A stretch of 64,000 bases of DNA, from positions 6,258 to 70,257 of the forward strand of contig DAOUHQ010000007.1 in the NCBI GenBank assembly GCA_034428515.1, given 5' to 3'. This document shows positions 10,490 through 47,864 of this stretch, in pieces; the first letter of the stretch is position 1; the number at the start of each line of letters is the position of its first letter. The notes beneath the pieces are model-generated. The model had not been told where the DNA came from, searched no databases, and was given only the letters and a program-made list of their open reading frames with translations. The position numbers and the translations under genes are program-made. This stretch comes from Dehalococcoidia bacterium (GTDB taxonomy: Bacteria; Chloroflexota; Dehalococcoidia; UBA6926).

Positions 10490-11056
10490 CTACATCTTCA
10501 AGAAATTGCGGAGAAGGTCTTTGCCGACCTCTGTCCGAATGCTCTCCGGATGGAACTGTATGCCCACAATGGGATACTCGCGGTGCCGTACGCCCATCAC
10601 CACGCCATTGTCCGTCCGCGCCGTTACCTCAAGCTCCGCAGGCACGGTGTCAGGCAGGATGGCGAGTGAGTGGTAGCGGATCGCCTCGAACGGATTTGGC
10701 AGACCCTCGTAGACACCCTTGCCGTCATGGTAAATCATGCTGGATTTGCCGTGCATGATTTCCCCCGCTCCGGCCACCGTCCCTCCAAAGGCCTCCCCGA
10801 TGCACTGATGACCGAGACACACGCCCAGCACCGGTGTCCCTCGTTCACCAAAATATCGTGCAACGTCCTTGGAAATGCCCGCGTTGGCGGGGTTCGACGG
10901 GCCCGGCGAGATGACAACCTTCTCCGGCTGCATCTCCGCGATGTTCTCCACAGTCGTCTGGTCATTTCGATCAACGACAACCTCTTCGCCAAGCTCGGAC
11001 AGGTACTGGTACAGGTTGTAGGTGAAGCTGTCGTAGTTGTCGAGCAGGAAGATCAT
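10490..11056 (-). CDS. trpG: anthranilate synthase component II (glutamine amidotransferase)
   Basis: 188 aa; MIFLLDNYDSFTYNL start; GVCLGHQ catalytic Cys; HPES. Confidence 0.9.
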   Translation of the reverse strand: MIFLLDNYDSFTYNLYQYLSELGEEVVVDRNDQTTVENIAEMQPEKVVISPGPSNPANAGISKDVARYFGERGTPVLGVCLGHQCIGEAFGGTVAGAGEIMHGKSSMIYHDGKGVYEGLPNPFEAIRYHSLAILPDTVPAELEVTARTDNGVVMGVRHREYPIVGIQFHPESIRTEVGKDLLRNFLKM

Positions 11057-12573
11057 CGCGCACCTCCTACCGGTTCGGCTGCAGCCCTGTTTATGCGGTC
11101 GTTCGTCAGGTCCTCCCCCACGTCCAGCGCGGCCAGCATCCCCCTCGCCTTGGCCAGTGATTCCTCGTATTCGGAACGCGGCACGCTGTCGTACACCAGA
11201 CCGCCGCCCGCCTGCACTGTCGCCAACCCGTCCTTCATCACGACGGTCCGGATGCAGATCGCCATGTCCATGTTTCCCGCGTTGGAGATGTAGCCGACTG
11301 CCCCGCTGTACGGTCCTCGCTCATGCGGCTCCTTCTCGGAGATAATCTCCATTGCGCGAATCTTGGGCGCGCCGGACAGCGTCCCCGCAGGGAAAGTGGA
11401 ACGCAGCGTGTCGTATGCAGTCAGCCCGTCCCGCAGCTTGCCCGTCACGTTGGAAACGATGTGCATCACGTGAGAATACCGCTCAATCTCCATGAGCTTG
11501 GTGACATTCACCGTGCCCGGCTCGCTGACACGGCCGATGTCATTTCGACCGAGATCGACGAGCATGATGTGTTCCGCCCGCTCTTTCTCGTCCGTGATCA
11601 ACTCCTCAGCAAGCGCGTCGTCTTCCTCAGGCGTTGCGCCACGCGGCTTCGTGCCTGCAATTGGATGCGTTGTTGCCATCCCGTCCTCAACGCGAACAAG
11701 CATCTCCGGAGACGACCCGATGATGTGAAAGTCGCCCATGTCCAGGAAGTACATGTACGGCGAGGGATTCAGCGTCCGCAGCGCGCGGTAGATGTCAAAC
11801 GGCGCGGCGGATGTCCGCCGTGCCAGCCGCTGTGACAGCACCACCTGAATGCATTCGCCTTCGGTGATCAGCCCCCGCGCCTCCTCAACCTGTTGCATGA
11901 ATGAATCCGCGGTGTGGTTGGACGTCAGTTCACCACGGTAATCGTCCGTAAGACCGGGCGTCAGAACGTTATTGCCCTCGATCGTTCCTCTCTCAAGTCG
12001 TTCATCAAGTTGGTCGATTCGTTCCACGGCTTTCTGATACGACTCGTATATTCGCTCGTCGTTCCCCTCCAGCGAGGCGTGGCTCACGATCTTGATCTCG
12101 TGCTTGACGTGGTCGAAGACCAGCATCGTGTCGGTCAGCATGAAGACCGATTCCGGCAGTTGCATCGGATCGGGGTTCTCGTTTCGCGGCACACGCGGCT
12201 CAAAGTGATGAACCGCCTCATACGCAATGAATCCGACGGCGCCGCCAAGGAACCTTGGAAGGCCCGGCGCTCGCACAGTGGTGACACCCTCAAGCTCCTT
12301 TTCGATCAAAGTCAGAGGATCGATGCTCCCTGCAGGCGTGTTCGGCCCCGTTGTGAGCACCTTGGTTGGGAGAGTGCCAATGAAGCTGTACCGGGCGACG
12401 CGCTCGCCGCCCTCCACACTCTCCAACAGGAACGACGGCGCCTCCCGCGCCACCTTGAGATACGCCGTGACGGGAGTCTCCATGTCGGCGGGAATGTCGC
12501 GCCATACGGGCGCGATGGTCCCACGACCGCGCATCGCGATCACCTCGTCCACGCTCGGGAAATACGTCGCCAT
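11053..12573 (-). CDS. trpE: anthranilate synthase component I
   Basis: 506 aa; chorismate-binding motifs; 4-nt overlap with trpG. Confidence 0.9.
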   Translation of the reverse strand: MATYFPSVDEVIAMRGRGTIAPVWRDIPADMETPVTAYLKVAREAPSFLLESVEGGERVARYSFIGTLPTKVLTTGPNTPAGSIDPLTLIEKELEGVTTVRAPGLPRFLGGAVGFIAYEAVHHFEPRVPRNENPDPMQLPESVFMLTDTMLVFDHVKHEIKIVSHASLEGNDERIYESYQKAVERIDQLDERLERGTIEGNNVLTPGLTDDYRGELTSNHTADSFMQQVEEARGLITEGECIQVVLSQRLARRTSAAPFDIYRALRTLNPSPYMYFLDMGDFHIIGSSPEMLVRVEDGMATTHPIAGTKPRGATPEEDDALAEELITDEKERAEHIMLVDLGRNDIGRVSEPGTVNVTKLMEIERYSHVMHIVSNVTGKLRDGLTAYDTLRSTFPAGTLSGAPKIRAMEIISEKEPHERGPYSGAVGYISNAGNMDMAICIRTVVMKDGLATVQAGGGLVYDSVPRSEYEESLAKARGMLAALDVGEDLTNDRINRAAAEPVGGAR

Positions 12574-12599: not shown

Positions 12600-12952
12600 C
12601 TCATCCTCGTCTGCAATGGAGGGACAAACAAAAAGCCCGTCCCTCAAAGGGACGGGTCCTCGTCTCGCGTGGATTCCCGCGGTGCCACCCTTATTCCCCC
12701 GCATAGCGGCGGGGGCTCTCTTAGGTACTTCCCGCTGGCCGAAGCCATTGGGCGTATACCGTGGACGTGTAACGGCGTCCCAACCCGTCGAAGCCTACTG
12801 AGTTACGGCTGGACACCGCACCTTTCGGTCCGCAGCTCCCGAGTCCATTTCCGTCCGGCCCGGCGTCGGGATTCCACCAGTCCCCGACTCTCTGTCGCCC
12901 AGCGATGGACGGTACTACTCTCGTTCGTCGCCTTTATTTTCCCTATTCAGTT
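12600..12952 (-). promoter_or_regulatory. T-box riboswitch leader (tRNA-Trp sensing) with intrinsic terminator, upstream of trpE
   Basis: Minus strand carries the T-box sequence AATAAGGGTGGCACCGCGG (12695..12677), complementary to the tRNA acceptor end (UGGC pairs with G73-CCA). Stem I shows an AGAGAG bulge, a GTCGGG/CCCGAC distal hairpin and a GGAAAUGGAC specifier region with UGG (Trp) followed by A. The terminator GGACCCGTCCC-TTTGA-GGGACGGGC-TTTTTGTTTG lies at 12660..12622. Confidence 0.7.
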
Positions 12953-15111: not shown

Positions 15112-15980
15112 GCGCGAACAGCCCCCACTCTCCTCAAGAATTCCTCGGCATTGTGCTGCAGCACGCGCTCCAACTCATCTGACGTCAGCCCTGCCTTGTC
15201 TAGGTACTCAATCACTCGCTCCTGCCGCATCAACGGGTAGTCCGTCGCGAACAGTACGCGATCGAGGCCGATGGAGTTGATGAGGGCGCGAATCGTGGCG
15301 GGATCATACAAATACGGCATTGCCGCCGTGTCCACGTATACGTCCGCAAATACGTCCTCAGACGCGCGGAGATTCGCATAGAAAGGCAACCCTCCTCCGG
15401 CGTGCGCAAGGATGACGGGGATGCCACGCAGGCGCTCCAATAGCCCATACAGGCGCTCGGGTGTCGCCGTCCCCTTGCCCGGATACATCCGCCCAACGGG
15501 TTCGGAAGCGTGCATCAACAACCCCATGCCGTGCCCGCGAAGATGATCCGCAACTGCCTCAATGTCATGCTGCTGCAGCTCGAGCAGCCCCTGCGTATCG
15601 GGCCGCAGCTCTCCCAGTCCACGTACACCCGCTGCGGCGAGGCGGTCGATTTCTGCCAGTGCTTCCGTCAGCGAGTCGCGCGGTGCAACGGTGCCGAAAC
15701 CAACCACACGGCTGGGATAGAGACGCACAGCCTCGATGATCGCATCGTTCCCCTCACGACACAGCGCGTTCGTGCTCCATCCGAATCCGCATGCGATCGA
15801 CTGTGAAATGCCTGCGATGTCCATCGCATTCACCAGCTGCTCCGTCACGATGATCTCCGCGTCCGGCGCCTGGTACATCTCATGGAACCCAGCATCCTGC
15901 GGGAAGTAGCGGAATCGATCCTCCGCCACATCCGGGTGGAAAACGTGAACGTGCGCGTCAACGCGGCCTATCGTGCTCAT
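15108..15980 (-). CDS. amidohydrolase-2 family TIM-barrel metal-dependent hydrolase
   Basis: 290 aa; N-terminal DAHVHVF metal motif; 4-nt overlap with thpR. Confidence 0.65.
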   Translation of the reverse strand: MSTIGRVDAHVHVFHPDVAEDRFRYFPQDAGFHEMYQAPDAEIIVTEQLVNAMDIAGISQSIACGFGWSTNALCREGNDAIIEAVRLYPSRVVGFGTVAPRDSLTEALAEIDRLAAAGVRGLGELRPDTQGLLELQQHDIEAVADHLRGHGMGLLMHASEPVGRMYPGKGTATPERLYGLLERLRGIPVILAHAGGGLPFYANLRASEDVFADVYVDTAAMPYLYDPATIRALINSIGLDRVLFATDYPLMRQERVIEYLDKAGLTSDELERVLQHNAEEFLRRVGAVRA

Positions 15981-18085: not shown

Positions 18086-19048
18086 TTACTTCTGACCGCC
18101 CCGCTCCCTGCGAATCGCAGAAAAATCTTCCCGACGCCATCGGTAAGGGGAGTGGACGATGGTTCCCGGTTCCGTGACAGTCTCCAGCAGGTTGAGTGCG
18201 TCTTCAACGATTGTTCTCTGTTGATCCACATTGTCAGGCTGCCCGAACGGCTGACCATACGGGTGTTTCACATAGAGTGAGCGTGGCGGTTTGACCCGCA
18301 TGGGCTGCTGTAGTCCCTGGTTCACCACCACCGTCGATATCCCGTGCTCCTCGAGCACGCGCGCGATCAGCCCGCCGGACTGATTGCACATCGGTCAAGT
18401 CGTTCCGATTAGTGCGGCGTCGACGTCTTCCTCCAGGAGCATCCTCGCAACTTCAGGTGCCGTCTCCTCCATCAGGCGAGGGATATTGTCGCCGATGATG
18501 TACCCCATGAAGCCAAAGGAATTCGCCGCGAGTGACCCAATCCGTCTTTCCTCTTCCATATCCCGAAGTCGTTCGATTGGAAAGATGACGTTGACGTCCT
18601 TCTCCGCATTGGACTTGTCATAGTGCTCATGGAAGATCGCCAATTCCGACGTTGGCGTAGTGGATGGAATCACGCGGTACGAGGGATCGTCGTCTATGTA
18701 TGGTTCCTGGGCGTCCCGCACATAGGACCCGCCTGTTGTAACTAGCGCAATGCGTGCCTCTGAAAGCGGCTTCTGAAATGCCGTCCACGGTGAGGAATCA
18801 AAAGATATCGCGTTTGGATTCACTCGCGATACGAGATCGCGTTCCCACTCTCCCAAGTATGCGTCCACCCGAGACCAATCGCCATCGTCATGGGAGAGCA
18901 GAGCGGCCTCATAGAGCCCCCTAAAGAAACGAGTCGCCTCTTCCTCCGGTAAGCGTTCCACCCTGATCTTGGAGAACGCCATGTTCTCGATGGACGGCGG
19001 CAGTTGCGCCAGGTCGCGTAGTTCAATCGGCATAAGAAATCCTCTCAT
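18086..19048 (-). CDS. GrdB/PrdB-family (glycine/proline reductase protein B-like) selenoprotein; in-frame TGA (Sec) at 18397..18395; U-x-x-C motif
   Basis: ORFs 18395..19048 and 18086..18391 share a frame and are separated only by TGA-CCG. N-terminal part carries the GrdB-family block HEHYDKSNAEKDVNVIFPIERLRDMEEERRIGSLA. Context is ALIGTT-U-PMC. Hairpin CAGUCC-GGC-GGGCUG sits 12 nt after the UGA. Confidence 0.6.
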
Positions 19049-42452: not shown

Positions 42453-43388
42453 GTGAGAACATCGGAAAGAATTGGGGAACCAATGGAGGAGGGGAAAATG
42501 ACGGACTACGAAAACATCATCTATGAGCTGCGTGAGGCAGCCGGCGGCAACGTTGCCTACATAACGCTGAATCGCCCCGAGCGCCTGAATGCGCTCAGCC
42601 GCGGCTTGCTGGCGGACGTTGGCAGCGCGCTCGAGGAGGCGGACAAGGACGAGACCGTCCGCTGCATCGTCATCAAGGGCGCCGGCCGCGCATTCTCAGC
42701 GGGCTATGACATGAACGTGCAGTCCGAAGGCAATCTGCCGCGTGACGCGCTCACCATGATTACCAGCGACCACCCCACGACGATGTATCGCCGTTGGATC
42801 TGGGGCAATCGCAAGCCGGTCATCGCTCAGTGCCATTCGTTCAGCCTCGCAGGTGGCGGGCAGTTGGCTTGCCACTGTGACATCACGATCGCCTCCGATG
42901 ACGCGCTCTTCGGCTACCCGCCTGCGCGCTACGCCAGCGTGGCGACGTACATGATCTGGCCGGAATTGGTCGGCATGAAGAAGATGAAGCAGTTGGCATT
43001 CACCGGCAACATGATGAACGCGCAGGAAGCCCTCCGCGTTGGTCTGGTGAGTGAGGTTGTGGATCGGGACGAGCTGGATGACTACGTCTGGACGCTCGCC
43101 AACACAATCTCCAAGCTTCCGCCGGCCTCGACGGAGCTTAACAAGCGCGCCATCAACTACTACTACGAGTCTCAGGGCATGTTCCAGGCCTATGAGTACG
43201 CCGAGAACCTGATGTACGTGTCCTACGCCGCATCGCCGGAGGATCTGCCCAAGGGCCTGCAGGACGTGGATCGCGTCACGGCAGAGCAGGGTATGCGCGC
43301 CGGGTTCCAGTACATGAACGAGGCCTTCACGGACGAGGACCAGGCCATCGCTGCTGAGCAGATGGCGCGTCCCAGCCGCGCCCCCTAA
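42453..43388 (+). CDS. enoyl-CoA hydratase/isomerase family protein
   Basis: 311 aa; crotonase motif IKGAGRAFSAGYDM. Confidence 0.75.
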   Translation: MRTSERIGEPMEEGKMTDYENIIYELREAAGGNVAYITLNRPERLNALSRGLLADVGSALEEADKDETVRCIVIKGAGRAFSAGYDMNVQSEGNLPRDALTMITSDHPTTMYRRWIWGNRKPVIAQCHSFSLAGGGQLACHCDITIASDDALFGYPPARYASVATYMIWPELVGMKKMKQLAFTGNMMNAQEALRVGLVSEVVDRDELDDYVWTLANTISKLPPASTELNKRAINYYYESQGMFQAYEYAENLMYVSYAASPEDLPKGLQDVDRVTAEQGMRAGFQYMNEAFTDEDQAIAAEQMARPSRAP

Positions 43389-43568
43389 AACCGTAGGCCA
43401 TGACGCCCGTCCGCCCCCTGTGCTAAATTGGGCGGACGGGCGATTAGCCGCATCGCGGCCAGTACCCGGTGTGGTGGGGTAGGTGACGATTAACTCATTT
43501 CGTACACCCCTTGAAGAAGCACTGATACATCGTCGTGCCCGGCACGACTGCAAGGGAGGGAGATTGGC

Positions 43569-44582
43569 ATGAAGGCACTCGTCTTCGATGAGTATGGTGG
43601 CCCGGAAGTCCTCCAATGGAAGGACATCGATGACCCCAAGCCCGGGCCGAATGACGTCGTGATTGAGGTCAAGGCAACGGCCATCAACTACAACGACGTC
43701 TGGGGACGCCGCGGCGCGCCTATGGAAGTGGAACTGCCACATATCTCCGGCAGCGACGCATCCGGCGTCGTCGTCGACAAGGGCAGTGAGGTCACGTCGC
43801 ATTCAGTCGGTGACGAAGTTGTCGTTCACTGCGGTCGCCCGGCTTTCAATAATCGCACCGGGCAGGAGTGCAACATCTGGGGCTACGACTGGCCCGCGCT
43901 TGACGGTGCGCACGGCCAGTACGTCCGGGTGCCGGCGGAGAACGCCGTTCCCAAGCCCACCAACCTCACGCATGAAGAGGCCGCATCTTTCCCACTCGTC
44001 CTTGTTACGACGTGGCGCAAGCTGGTCGAAAAGGCGAGCATCAAGCCTGGCGACAACGTCCTCATCTGGGGCGCGGCCGGTGGTCTTGGTGTTATGGCCA
44101 TCCAGATTGCCAAGCTGTTCCAGGCGCATCCGATCGCTGTTGCCTCCAGCGATGAAAAGCTGGAACTGTGCAAGGACCTCGGCGCGGAGTACCTGATCAA
44201 CCGCAAGACGCAGGATGTCCGGCAGGAGATGCGCAACATTGTGGGGCGGCGCGGCGCGGATATCGTTTTCGAGCATCCCGGGCAGGCCACCATGGGCCTT
44301 AGCATCCAGCTCGCCAGCTGGGGCGGCACCGTCGTCACCAGCGGTGCAACCAGCGGCTACGACGCCAACATTGACCTCCGCCACATCTTCTTCCGACAGG
44401 TCAAGCTGGTCGGTTCCACACTTGGCACCGTCCACCAGTTGCAGGACGCGCTGGACCAGGTGCAGGCAGGCCACATCAAGCCGGTCATCGACCGCGTCCT
44501 CCCGATGAAGGACGCAGGCGAAGGCCAGGTCCTCCTCGAGACTGAGGCGGTTGCGGGCAAGGTCGTCCTGGTCCCGAACTAA
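43569..44582 (+). CDS. MDR-family zinc-binding dehydrogenase / NADPH:quinone reductase-like
   Basis: 337 aa; GAAGGLG NAD(P) motif. Confidence 0.8.
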   Translation: MKALVFDEYGGPEVLQWKDIDDPKPGPNDVVIEVKATAINYNDVWGRRGAPMEVELPHISGSDASGVVVDKGSEVTSHSVGDEVVVHCGRPAFNNRTGQECNIWGYDWPALDGAHGQYVRVPAENAVPKPTNLTHEEAASFPLVLVTTWRKLVEKASIKPGDNVLIWGAAGGLGVMAIQIAKLFQAHPIAVASSDEKLELCKDLGAEYLINRKTQDVRQEMRNIVGRRGADIVFEHPGQATMGLSIQLASWGGTVVTSGATSGYDANIDLRHIFFRQVKLVGSTLGTVHQLQDALDQVQAGHIKPVIDRVLPMKDAGEGQVLLETEAVAGKVVLVPN

Positions 44583-44676
44583 ACTCTGACCACACATCGT
44601 GAACAAAGGGGGGCGCCCGCAAGGGCGCCCCCCTTTCTTGTTTCCCTCAAACGGACTGGAATGAGAAACTGGGCGC

Positions 44677-45417
44677 ATGACACGCCCAGACTCGCTCGCC
44701 CACGCCGTCGTCTTTATTGACGGGTTTGACCCGCGTGCCGTCCTGCCCGCCACGGGCCCTCATCCGGCGTTCAGAGATGTAAACGGCATGCCCGCCTCAG
44801 ACGCGCTTCTCCGACATCTCGCAGCGCAGGGAATAACGGAAGTCTGGCTCGTCTCCCGTGCTCTGCCCGGCATGGTCGTTCACTACTTTGGCGATGGAAG
44901 CCGTTGGGGAGTCAGCGCGACACACGTCCGACAGGACGGATCGCCCGGCTCCGGCGGCGCACTGTCGGCCGTTCGCCAGCAGATCACGGAATCGACGCTC
45001 GTCATTGACGGTGCACTCGTGACAGACCTCGAGTTGGGTGCCATGTTCGAGGATCACCGCTCTGCCGACGTAGACCTCACTATGTGCCTTACGGGCGACG
45101 TGCAGGAAACAGCAGGATTGCCCCGCGCGCTAATCGATTCATCCTCACCTTTCGTGCAACAGATCCTGGTTGATCCACCGTTCCCGGCCAACCCGGAGAT
45201 CCTTGTCGGAGTCGGCGTCTACATCATTGAACCGGAGGCCGTGGAGCCGTTGCAGACGGCAGGGGTGAACGCGGATTGGGTGACGGATGTCCTTCCTAAC
45301 CTAGCCCGGCAGAGTCGTGTCCGGGGATGGCAGGCCAACCCCGGCACCCGATTCGATCTTCCGCGCCGCGTCCGTGTCATGCATTCCCAGACCGGCCGCG
45401 CGCTTCCCACAACCTGA
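44677..45417 (+). CDS. nucleotidyltransferase-like (sugar-phosphate NTP-transferase fold, degenerate)
   Basis: 246 aa; weak NTP_transferase similarity. Confidence 0.4.
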   Translation: MTRPDSLAHAVVFIDGFDPRAVLPATGPHPAFRDVNGMPASDALLRHLAAQGITEVWLVSRALPGMVVHYFGDGSRWGVSATHVRQDGSPGSGGALSAVRQQITESTLVIDGALVTDLELGAMFEDHRSADVDLTMCLTGDVQETAGLPRALIDSSSPFVQQILVDPPFPANPEILVGVGVYIIEPEAVEPLQTAGVNADWVTDVLPNLARQSRVRGWQANPGTRFDLPRRVRVMHSQTGRALPTT

Positions 45418-46923: not shown

Positions 46924-47751
46924 TCACACCTCAAGCGGCGTATCGTCCCGGTTCGCCCACTCCCGCATGGAACCGTCGTAGTTCCGCGTGTTTTCATAAC
47001 CAACAAGCCGCATGACGAATACTCCGTGCGCCGCACGGATGCCGCCCTGTCAATAAGTGTAGACATTCTTGTCCGGCGTGATGCCATGTTCAGAGAGCAG
47101 CCGCCGTATCTCGGACGCCGACTTAAACCGATGTGTTTCGCGATCCATCAATTTGAGCCATTCAAGGTGCACGGCTCCAGGGACATGCCCGGCGCGCGCG
47201 TTGGCGCGGTTGTTGGATCCGTCCCATTCGCCATCGGTGCGAACATCCCAAACGACGGAATCCTCAAACGTGCACGCCTCTTTCAGGTCCTCTACTTTCA
47301 CCAGCATTGAGTCGTCGAGGTTAGGGGTGAACGTTGCGCCCTGCGCTCGCGCCGGACGCTGAAAGCTGATCGCGTGGCCGCCTGTGACCCACTCACGCCA
47401 GCCGCCGTTCAGAACTCGCGCGTCCCTGTGCCCGTACGTGTTGAGTACCCACCACAGGCGTGCCGCGGTCACACTCTGTCCGTTGTCGTAGCAGATTACC
47501 GACGTGTCGTCGCTGATCCCTAACCCTTCGCACATCTCCTTGAACTGTGAGGGAGTCATCATCAGCGTGCGATTCGTGTCAGGGTCTTTCACGAAGTTGT
47601 CCGGGATCAGAACTGCTCCCGGGATATGGCCTCTGTTGTAGCCCGCATCCACGTCGCAGTCCACGACGACAACGTTGTCGTCGTTCAAGTGCTCTGTCAG
47701 CCAATCCGCCTCGACCAGATACTCCGGATGTGCATAATCCTTGGTAGTCAT
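46924..47751 (-). CDS. rhodanese-like (tandem-domain) sulfurtransferase with TGA at catalytic-Cys position (candidate selenoprotein) at 47052..47050
   Basis: ORF track stops at 47050 after ...KNVYTY. Same frame continues past the TGA as QGGIRAAHGVFVMRLVGYENTRNYDGSMREWANRDDTPLEV* (stop 46926..46924). This reconstitutes the C(U)QGGIR active-site loop and the YDGSxxEW motif; full length is 276 aa. Hairpin UCCGUGC-GGC-GCACGGA lies 10 nt after the UGA. Confidence 0.6.
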
Positions 47752-47864
47752 TACGTCCTCCCCCTTGGAGAGCCTTCCTCATGCTAGAGAACGCTCATCG
47801 ACAGTATGCCACCACACTGACGCTCGCCTGTCTGTCCTTCATGTCGCGCATGTAGAATTGACAT

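Follow-up and report, generated by a model that had tools for sequence, protein, structure and literature searches.

The locus examined here raises the question of how a rhodanese gene with a stop codon at its catalytic position is to be read, and which residue is placed there if translation continues. In the window (the whole stretch of DNA analyzed, 64,000 nt in length), a minus-strand open reading frame (47751..47053) was found to encode 233 residues ending in ...KNVYTY and to be followed directly by TGA, after which the same frame reads QGGIRAAHGVFVMRLVGYENTRNYDGSMREWANRDDTPLEV, a stretch of 41 residues, before a second TGA is reached (Table 1). Re-translation recovered the reading frame described in the first-pass annotation, including its halt after KNVYTY and its continuation beyond; the 42 additional codons and the total length of 276 residues given there both counted the stop, such that the sense codons number 41 and the product 275 residues.

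Table 1. Features of the window that bear on the rhodanese gene and its internal UGA
Feature	Position	Strand	Details
Tandem-domain rhodanese gene, complete	46924..47751	minus	275 residues (233 aa, predicted Sec234 and 41 aa), then stop; by translation
Shine-Dalgarno-like GGAGG	47757..47761	minus	5 nt 5′ of ATG at 47751..47749; read from the sequence
In-frame UGA, codon 234, at the catalytic Cys position	47050..47052	minus	predicted Sec
41-codon tail 3′ of the UGA: QGGIR (rest of active-site loop) and C-terminal YDGSxxEW	46927..47049	minus	
True terminator TGA	46924..46926	minus	by translation
Putative SECIS upper stem-loop UCCGUGC-GGC-GCACGGA	47023..47039	minus	7 bp, GGC triloop
Possible SECIS lower stem	47010..47049	minus	flanks the upper hairpin; pairing varies by lineage
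PrdB/GrdB-family selenoprotein B homolog	18086..19048	minus	TGA 18397..18395, U-P-M-C (UxxC) motif
Molybdopterin oxidoreductase domain protein, 203 aa	47865..48476	plus	divergent from the rhodanese gene; PF00174, 7e-41

Comparison of the full-length product with known rhodaneses was used to assign the position of the internal stop within the fold. The protein contained two domains recognized by the Pfam Rhodanese model (PF00581; E 5.4e-37), and a phmmer search against solved structures aligned residues 5-273 with 1UAR, the T. thermophilus rhodanese (E 7e-48), and residues 3-273 with 3HZU, the M. tuberculosis SseA (E 3e-39). In these alignments the TGA column coincided with the catalytic Cys of both enzymes (y-[TGA]-QGGIR compared with yCRiaeRs and yCRigeRs, respectively), and the nucleophile position was found to open a six-residue loop, U-Q-G-G-I-R, in the C-terminal domain. 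The two PF00581 domains and the alignments to 1UAR and 3HZU uphold the proposal that the gene specifies a full tandem-domain rhodanese with UGA at the active-site residue. Against the SseA equivalog model of NCBIfam (NF008557) the protein scored 138 bits, below the curated cut-off of 250 bits, and is therefore regarded as a homolog and not as an SseA equivalog, with no substrate class given by the match. The only contig returned as encoding this exact protein was a 5.3-kb Logan contig, and three of the related loci (L001, L002, and L014) share about 93.5% nucleotide identity with the window across roughly 19 kb.

Relatives of the gene were collected by scanning one genome per species, which yielded 384 relatives; the best 80 loci of these 384 were analyzed, all from Dehalococcoidia, SAR202 or Chloroflexota MAGs and with identities of 62-98%. 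The tblastn matches in these 80 genomes began at query residues 1-6 and finished at residues 273-275; thus, all 80 extend past the internal stop. TGA was detected at the catalytic codon in all 82 related genes of the 80 loci (tandem paralogs in one locus, L073, included), each with an in-frame tail of 41-45 residues, and a frameshift or truncation was never seen. The comparison of Cys and TGA among orthologs that the first-pass annotation had proposed therefore returned TGA in every case. The terminators at the ends of the orthologs were found to be TGA, TAA or TAG, and the internal codon was TGA throughout. When a Cys-substituted query was compared with 5.8 billion proteins, all of the best 120 clusters (62-91% identity) covered 83-85% of the query, stopped at the catalytic codon and ended in ...TY; their lengths were 232-237 aa, except for one cluster of 267 aa with an N-terminal extension. 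Neither these 120 clusters, the nearest in protein sequence, nor the 80 closest genomes contained a Cys ortholog. Cys homologs with an identical C-Q-G-G-I-R-A-A loop do exist in uncultured organisms (P0136-P0140; ...ITYCQGGIRAAH...), and their Cys aligns with the UGA position to form a Cys/Sec pair. The mean pN/pS over 3,240 sequence pairs was 0.20 for the tail, likewise 0.20 for codons 247-275 (beyond the hairpins described below), and 0.27 for codons 1-232, which indicates purifying selection on the tail. Its conservation in frame and the pN/pS of 0.20 argue that the tail is translated in frame. By sequence, the UGA-containing rhodanese is fixed, as a predicted Sec-rhodanese, across a large Dehalococcoidia/SAR202 clade spanning 62-98% identity. 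Both tandem paralogs of L073, a Dehalococcoidia genome (9756..9818 and 10700..10762), carry TGA at the catalytic position; in the upstream copy, the tail has diverged (QAGLRAAHGVFVLNLLGYGDARNYDGSMFEWANLPEAEAPMESGE).

The region 3′ of the UGA was examined for a selenocysteine insertion element. The hairpin reported there by the first-pass annotation was confirmed, beginning 10 nt 3′ of the UGA with a UGA-to-loop spacing of 17 nt. It was predicted to fold at -10.7 kcal/mol (z = -2.86), with 2 of 200 shuffles folding equally well; in a 66-nt context, its z was only -1.26. The published bacterial SECIS model (bSECISearch, PMC13188914) describes (i) a loop of 3-9 nt with a G within its first two positions; (ii) an upper stem of 4-16 bp; (iii) a location 16-37 nt from the UGA; and (iv) an MFE of -7.5 kcal/mol or lower. 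The folding proposed in the first-pass annotation places the window hairpin within all of these limits by its GGC loop, 7-bp stem, spacing, and free energy. For the longer segment 47052..47010, an MFE of -16.7 kcal/mol (z = -1.75) only weakly suggests a lower stem in the window sequence; in other orthologs, L039 among them, the UGA itself was predicted to be part of an uninterrupted stem (-25.3 kcal/mol, z = -2.79). No SECIS-like family of Rfam was matched, either at the gathering threshold or at E<=10.

Codon usage in the orthologs was next used as a measure of constraint at the RNA level. Normalised synonymous diversity was derived from 81 genes aligned by codon and was scored in 239 intervals of ten codons. 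Codons 233-242 displayed the lowest value of all 239 intervals (0.21, compared with a gene mean of 0.68), and the eight lowest intervals all overlapped the UGA/hairpin region. RNA-level constraint falls, in other words, on the UGA and the hairpin. Further analysis revealed two classes of sequence. In the 61 sequences of the 'AAHG' class (...RAAHG...), the stem CCGUGC/GCACGG and its GGC loop are intact, and the codons I238 ATC, R239 CGT, A240 GCG, A241 GCG, and H242 CAC are each present in 61/61 sequences, with the F245 and V246 codons free to vary. In the 20 sequences of the 'AANS' class (...RAANS...), the 'AAHG' stem is broken and R239 is found in 6 different codons; these sequences carry another hairpin of 8 bp, GGCGAACA-GNN-UGUUCGUC, located 8 nt further 3′, and the codons N242 AAC, F245 TTC, and V246 GTC are each used in 20/20 and S243 AGT in 19/20, the lone exception at codon 243 being Gly (GGT). 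One or the other hairpin was present in every sequence. Constraint on the protein would not by itself readily account for this reciprocal shift of codon constraint with hairpin class. To some extent, the conservation of the hairpin is nonetheless protein-driven, as the stem is made of the codons of highly conserved residues. Compensatory double-sided covariation was detected in neither hairpin, its counts not exceeding those of shuffles, and support for the RNA element hence comes from the class switch and from the low diversity at synonymous sites. The bases that flank the UGA were also found to be constrained: the Tyr codon before it (47053..47055) is TAT in 81/81 orthologs, although the other Tyr codons of the gene favour TAC (68:6, 61:10, and 66:13), and the base immediately 3′ (47049) is C in all orthologs. 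These flanks suggest that the surroundings of the Sec codon are constrained beyond what the hairpin explains. We consider it an even bet that a shift of the SECIS between two overlapping hairpins, placed 8 nt apart, is coupled to the His242Asn and Gly243Ser replacements and is both real and previously undescribed. If true, this would be a natural case of SECIS relocation within a conserved active-site coding segment. The two alternative hairpins also provide a natural experiment on SECIS requirements.

The first-pass annotation had pointed to a second in-frame UGA with a similar GGC hairpin in the window, and this candidate proved to be a homolog of a known selenoprotein family. The D-proline reductase PrdB model (TIGR04483) matched at 1.5e-48 over residues 87-306, across the TGA, as did the Pfam GRDB family (PF07355), and the 31 nearest relatives of the protein (71-94% identity) are all recorded as 212 aa, cut at the same TGA. 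The hairpin of this gene, AUCAGUCC-GGC-GGGCUGAU, has a UGA-to-loop spacing of 18 nt and is nearly the design of the rhodanese hairpin. When the PrdB-like protein was compared with solved structures in the PDB, no match was returned. In the Sargasso Sea, only two selenoprotein families were more abundant than PrdB with its UxxC motif (PMC1088965). A read-through scan of the window gave a noisy set of 228 matches, among which only the rhodanese and PrdB-like sites stood out by eye. A third candidate, two long minus-strand ORFs (42696..44753) joined by TGA at 43805..43803, was rejected as antisense shadows of plus-strand genes; the plus-strand ORFs concerned (42453..43388 and 43569..44582) are, as judged by eye, presumably enoyl-CoA hydratase-like and alcohol-dehydrogenase-like.

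The capacity to decode Sec was investigated in the window and in the relatives. With the E. coli proteins as tblastn queries, no selA, selB or selD was detected in the window (64 kb) or in the 80 loci, and ARAGORN identified no tRNA-Sec in the window or any of these loci; the Sec machinery is not linked to the rhodanese gene. (ARAGORN did predict an unusually long tRNA-Glu(ctc) of 88 nt in L012, at 15580..15667 on the minus strand.) BSepDB, which takes in only species with a Sec pathway, lists 49 selenoprotein genes for Dehalococcoidia bacterium UBA1141 (the source of L048) and 46 for isolate 10f4566d-... (the source of L020). Both genomes carry the rhodanese ortholog and rank in the top ten bacteria of that database by number of selenoprotein genes. 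In sponge-symbiont bins, SelA was found together with SelB in most. Our guess, from the isolate names of the closest ones (APA_bin, SB066x), is that the relatives of the window are sponge-derived. The genome from which the window derives would be expected to possess the Sec machinery as well.

Overall, the gene very probably specifies a tandem-domain sulfurtransferase of the rhodanese type in which selenocysteine is the catalytic nucleophile. This reading is based on (i) the alignment of the UGA with the catalytic Cys; (ii) the clade-wide presence of the UGA; (iii) selection on the tail; (iv) constraint on the hairpin and its fit to the bSECIS model; and (v) the second selenoprotein gene; it is further supported by the BSepDB listing of the L020 and L048 genomes and by the continued use of TGA as a terminator. 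In the mechanism we propose, SelB bearing Sec-tRNA(Sec) would be recruited by the in-frame 7-bp stem-loop with its GGC apex 17 nt past the UGA and would deliver Sec at codon 234, after which the ribosome would finish the U-Q-G-G-I-R active-site loop and the 41 C-terminal residues. By analogy with the Cys enzymes, which proceed via a persulfide, the selenolate at the base of U-Q-G-G-I-R may take sulfane sulfur from a donor (thiosulfate or a persulfide, for example) to give an Se-S intermediate on the enzyme, from which the sulfur would be handed to an acceptor. We infer the insertion of Sec, and likewise its machinery, the substrate and any benefit over Cys. A selenium-handling rhodanese that forms Se-Se or Se-S on Sec234, in place of an ordinary sulfurtransferase, is an unlikely alternative in our estimate; if true, it would supply or detoxify selenium in selenoprotein-rich, SAR202-type Dehalococcoidia.

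Translation past the UGA could also be envisioned to occur without Sec, with a near-cognate tRNA placing Cys, Trp or Arg at the codon and the hairpin merely slowing termination. UGA followed by C is a weak termination context, and the invariant C after the UGA would suit such a process, as would the failure to find Sec machinery across the window and the 80 loci. However, the homologs have a catalytic Cys at this position, making a classic Cys/Sec pair, the geometry of the hairpin (with its G in the loop) is that of the SECIS model, a similar element accompanies a second gene, itself from a known selenoprotein family, and BSepDB lists related genomes as possessing the Sec pathway and many selenoproteins; we therefore view Sec-free readthrough as very improbable. 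Still less probable is that the gene is a pseudogene or encodes a genuine 233-residue rhodanese without an active site. Such a product is what GenBank and gene callers present, as a 'sulfurtransferase' of 233-234 aa (e.g., MYD36759.1), but it would have no catalytic loop, and the comparative data refute it by the recurrence of TGA at the exact codon in 82/82 genes, down to 62% identity and with no frameshifts, and by the pN/pS of 0.20 in the tail. The assignment of UGA to a standard amino acid (code 4 or 25) finds an echo in an ENA gene call from a 650-bp contig (P0135) that has W at the position, which is due to translation of TGA with code 4; yet TGA is also the terminator of the rhodanese gene itself, both here and in numerous orthologs, and of many well-delimited genes of the window, and Trp or Gly in place of the catalytic Cys would inactivate the enzyme. 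As UGA is still terminating here, we give code reassignment hardly any credence. A TGC or TGT misread or misassembled as TGA, which is favoured by nothing more than codons one base apart, has a negligible chance and is refuted by the same TGA in 80 independent assemblies (some deposited as complete chromosomes) and in upwards of 100 protein clusters of various sources.

Returning to the selenocysteine reading, we asked whether gene context could suggest a partner for the predicted sulfurtransferase. The first-pass annotation had described a divergent, sulfite-oxidase-like neighbor, and a divergent molybdopterin oxidoreductase domain protein is indeed present, with matches to MsrP, SoxC, and SorA that are weak and all far under the cut-off; the pairing, however, was found only in the 17 closest of the 80 loci. 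In 45 other loci, the recurrent neighbor of the rhodanese gene was a protein of about 630 aa, which we take by eye to be acetyl-CoA-synthetase-like. Functional coupling between the rhodanese and the molybdopterin oxidoreductase was dropped from consideration, synteny being limited to the 17 closest loci; with a different neighbor elsewhere, gene context indicates no conserved functional partner. In another part of the window, a T-box leader (12645..12937, minus strand; Rfam RF00230, 116 bits) was detected 5′ of an ORF (11053..12573) that we presume by eye to be trpE-like and to head a run of apparent tryptophan-biosynthesis genes.

These findings mend the annotation of the gene, as the public 'sulfurtransferase' records of 233-234 aa omit the active site that the full-length gene encodes. 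They also extend the Sec-rhodanese from a few metagenome reads to predicted fixation in a large, globally abundant SAR202/Dehalococcoidia clade, in which what Sec gives a persulfide-transfer enzyme is open to study. The rhodanese forms in selenoprotein catalogues from 2005 to 2026 (PMC1088965, PMC2398784, and PMC13188914) are listed only as predicted selenoproteins, and the clade is thus a well-defined target for validation. For selenoprotein specialists the findings would not be surprising. The richness of the clade in selenoproteins has been noted before. We have high confidence that the first-pass annotation was right in its observation and in its Sec interpretation, and wrong in its claim of rarity.

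That claim, by which Sec-rhodaneses had only been suggested sporadically, does not hold in view of a family named in 2005 and present in the Sargasso, Olavius, GOS, and 2026 catalogues. Judged by sequence features, the gene belongs to the predicted selenoprotein family 'rhodanese-related sulfurtransferase' (COG2897, UxxG), catalogued since 2005; it shares PF00581, a single Sec, U-Q-G-G as UxxG and an SseA-like two-domain layout, the placement being made from the published description of the family, for which AACY01016424 and MCY3690685.1 are reference sequences. The family was reported as (i) 3 Sec sequences of COG2897 in the Sargasso Sea in 2005, with a predicted SECIS drawn for AACY01016424 and the Sec-rhodanese taken to implicate selenium in sulfurtransferase function (PMC1088965); (ii) 3 copies of 'Sulfurtransferase COG2897' in Olavius symbionts (PMC1976440); (iii) 8 sequences as cd01449 and 1 as COG2897 in the GOS survey of 2008 (PMC2398784); and (iv) 'rhodanese-like form 4 / rhodanese-related sulfurtransferase', of COG2897 type with a UxxG motif, in a 2026 review (PMC13188914).

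The catalogued COG2897 Sec-rhodaneses and the window gene are alike in their single Sec, PF00581 domains, UxxG motif and two-domain SseA-like structure, in their origin from marine uncultured bacteria, and in a SECIS-like hairpin just 3′ of the UGA with a G in the apical loop. Nothing essential differs between them, apart from the few copies in surveys compared with the clade-wide fixation observed here. With the Cys tandem rhodaneses (1UAR, 3HZU, and P0136-P0140) the protein has in common full-length homology, the same arrangement of an inactive N-terminal and a catalytic C-terminal domain, the six-residue loop, an Arg at +5 and the YDGSxxEW segment, the loop length and Arg matching those of solved homologs of thiosulfate-sulfurtransferase type; the difference is that the Cys enzymes use a Cys nucleophile and have no recoding element, whereas the nucleophile of the window gene is UGA-encoded. 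In the single-domain COG0607 Sec-rhodanese forms 1-3 (UxxS, UxxG, and CxU; NF041203, rhodanese_LYCAU) and in the rhodanese/DsbD fusion TsoB (NF045694), Sec lies in or beside the rhodanese active-site loop, as predicted here, but their single-domain or fusion architectures and their other motifs are unlike those of the window protein. With 40.5 bits against a 115-bit cut-off for NF041203 and 22.8 against 805 bits for NF045694, the window protein is outside both families. The minimal SECIS of E. coli fdhF has its upper stem-loop 11 nt from the UGA and includes a bulged U. The window hairpin has no sequence similarity to the E. coli SECIS elements and is without the bulged U, and its contact with SelB is putative. 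In its overall design, nonetheless, it resembles the bacterial SECIS model, with an in-frame stem-loop right after the UGA, a 3-nt loop that starts with GG and a 7-bp stem.
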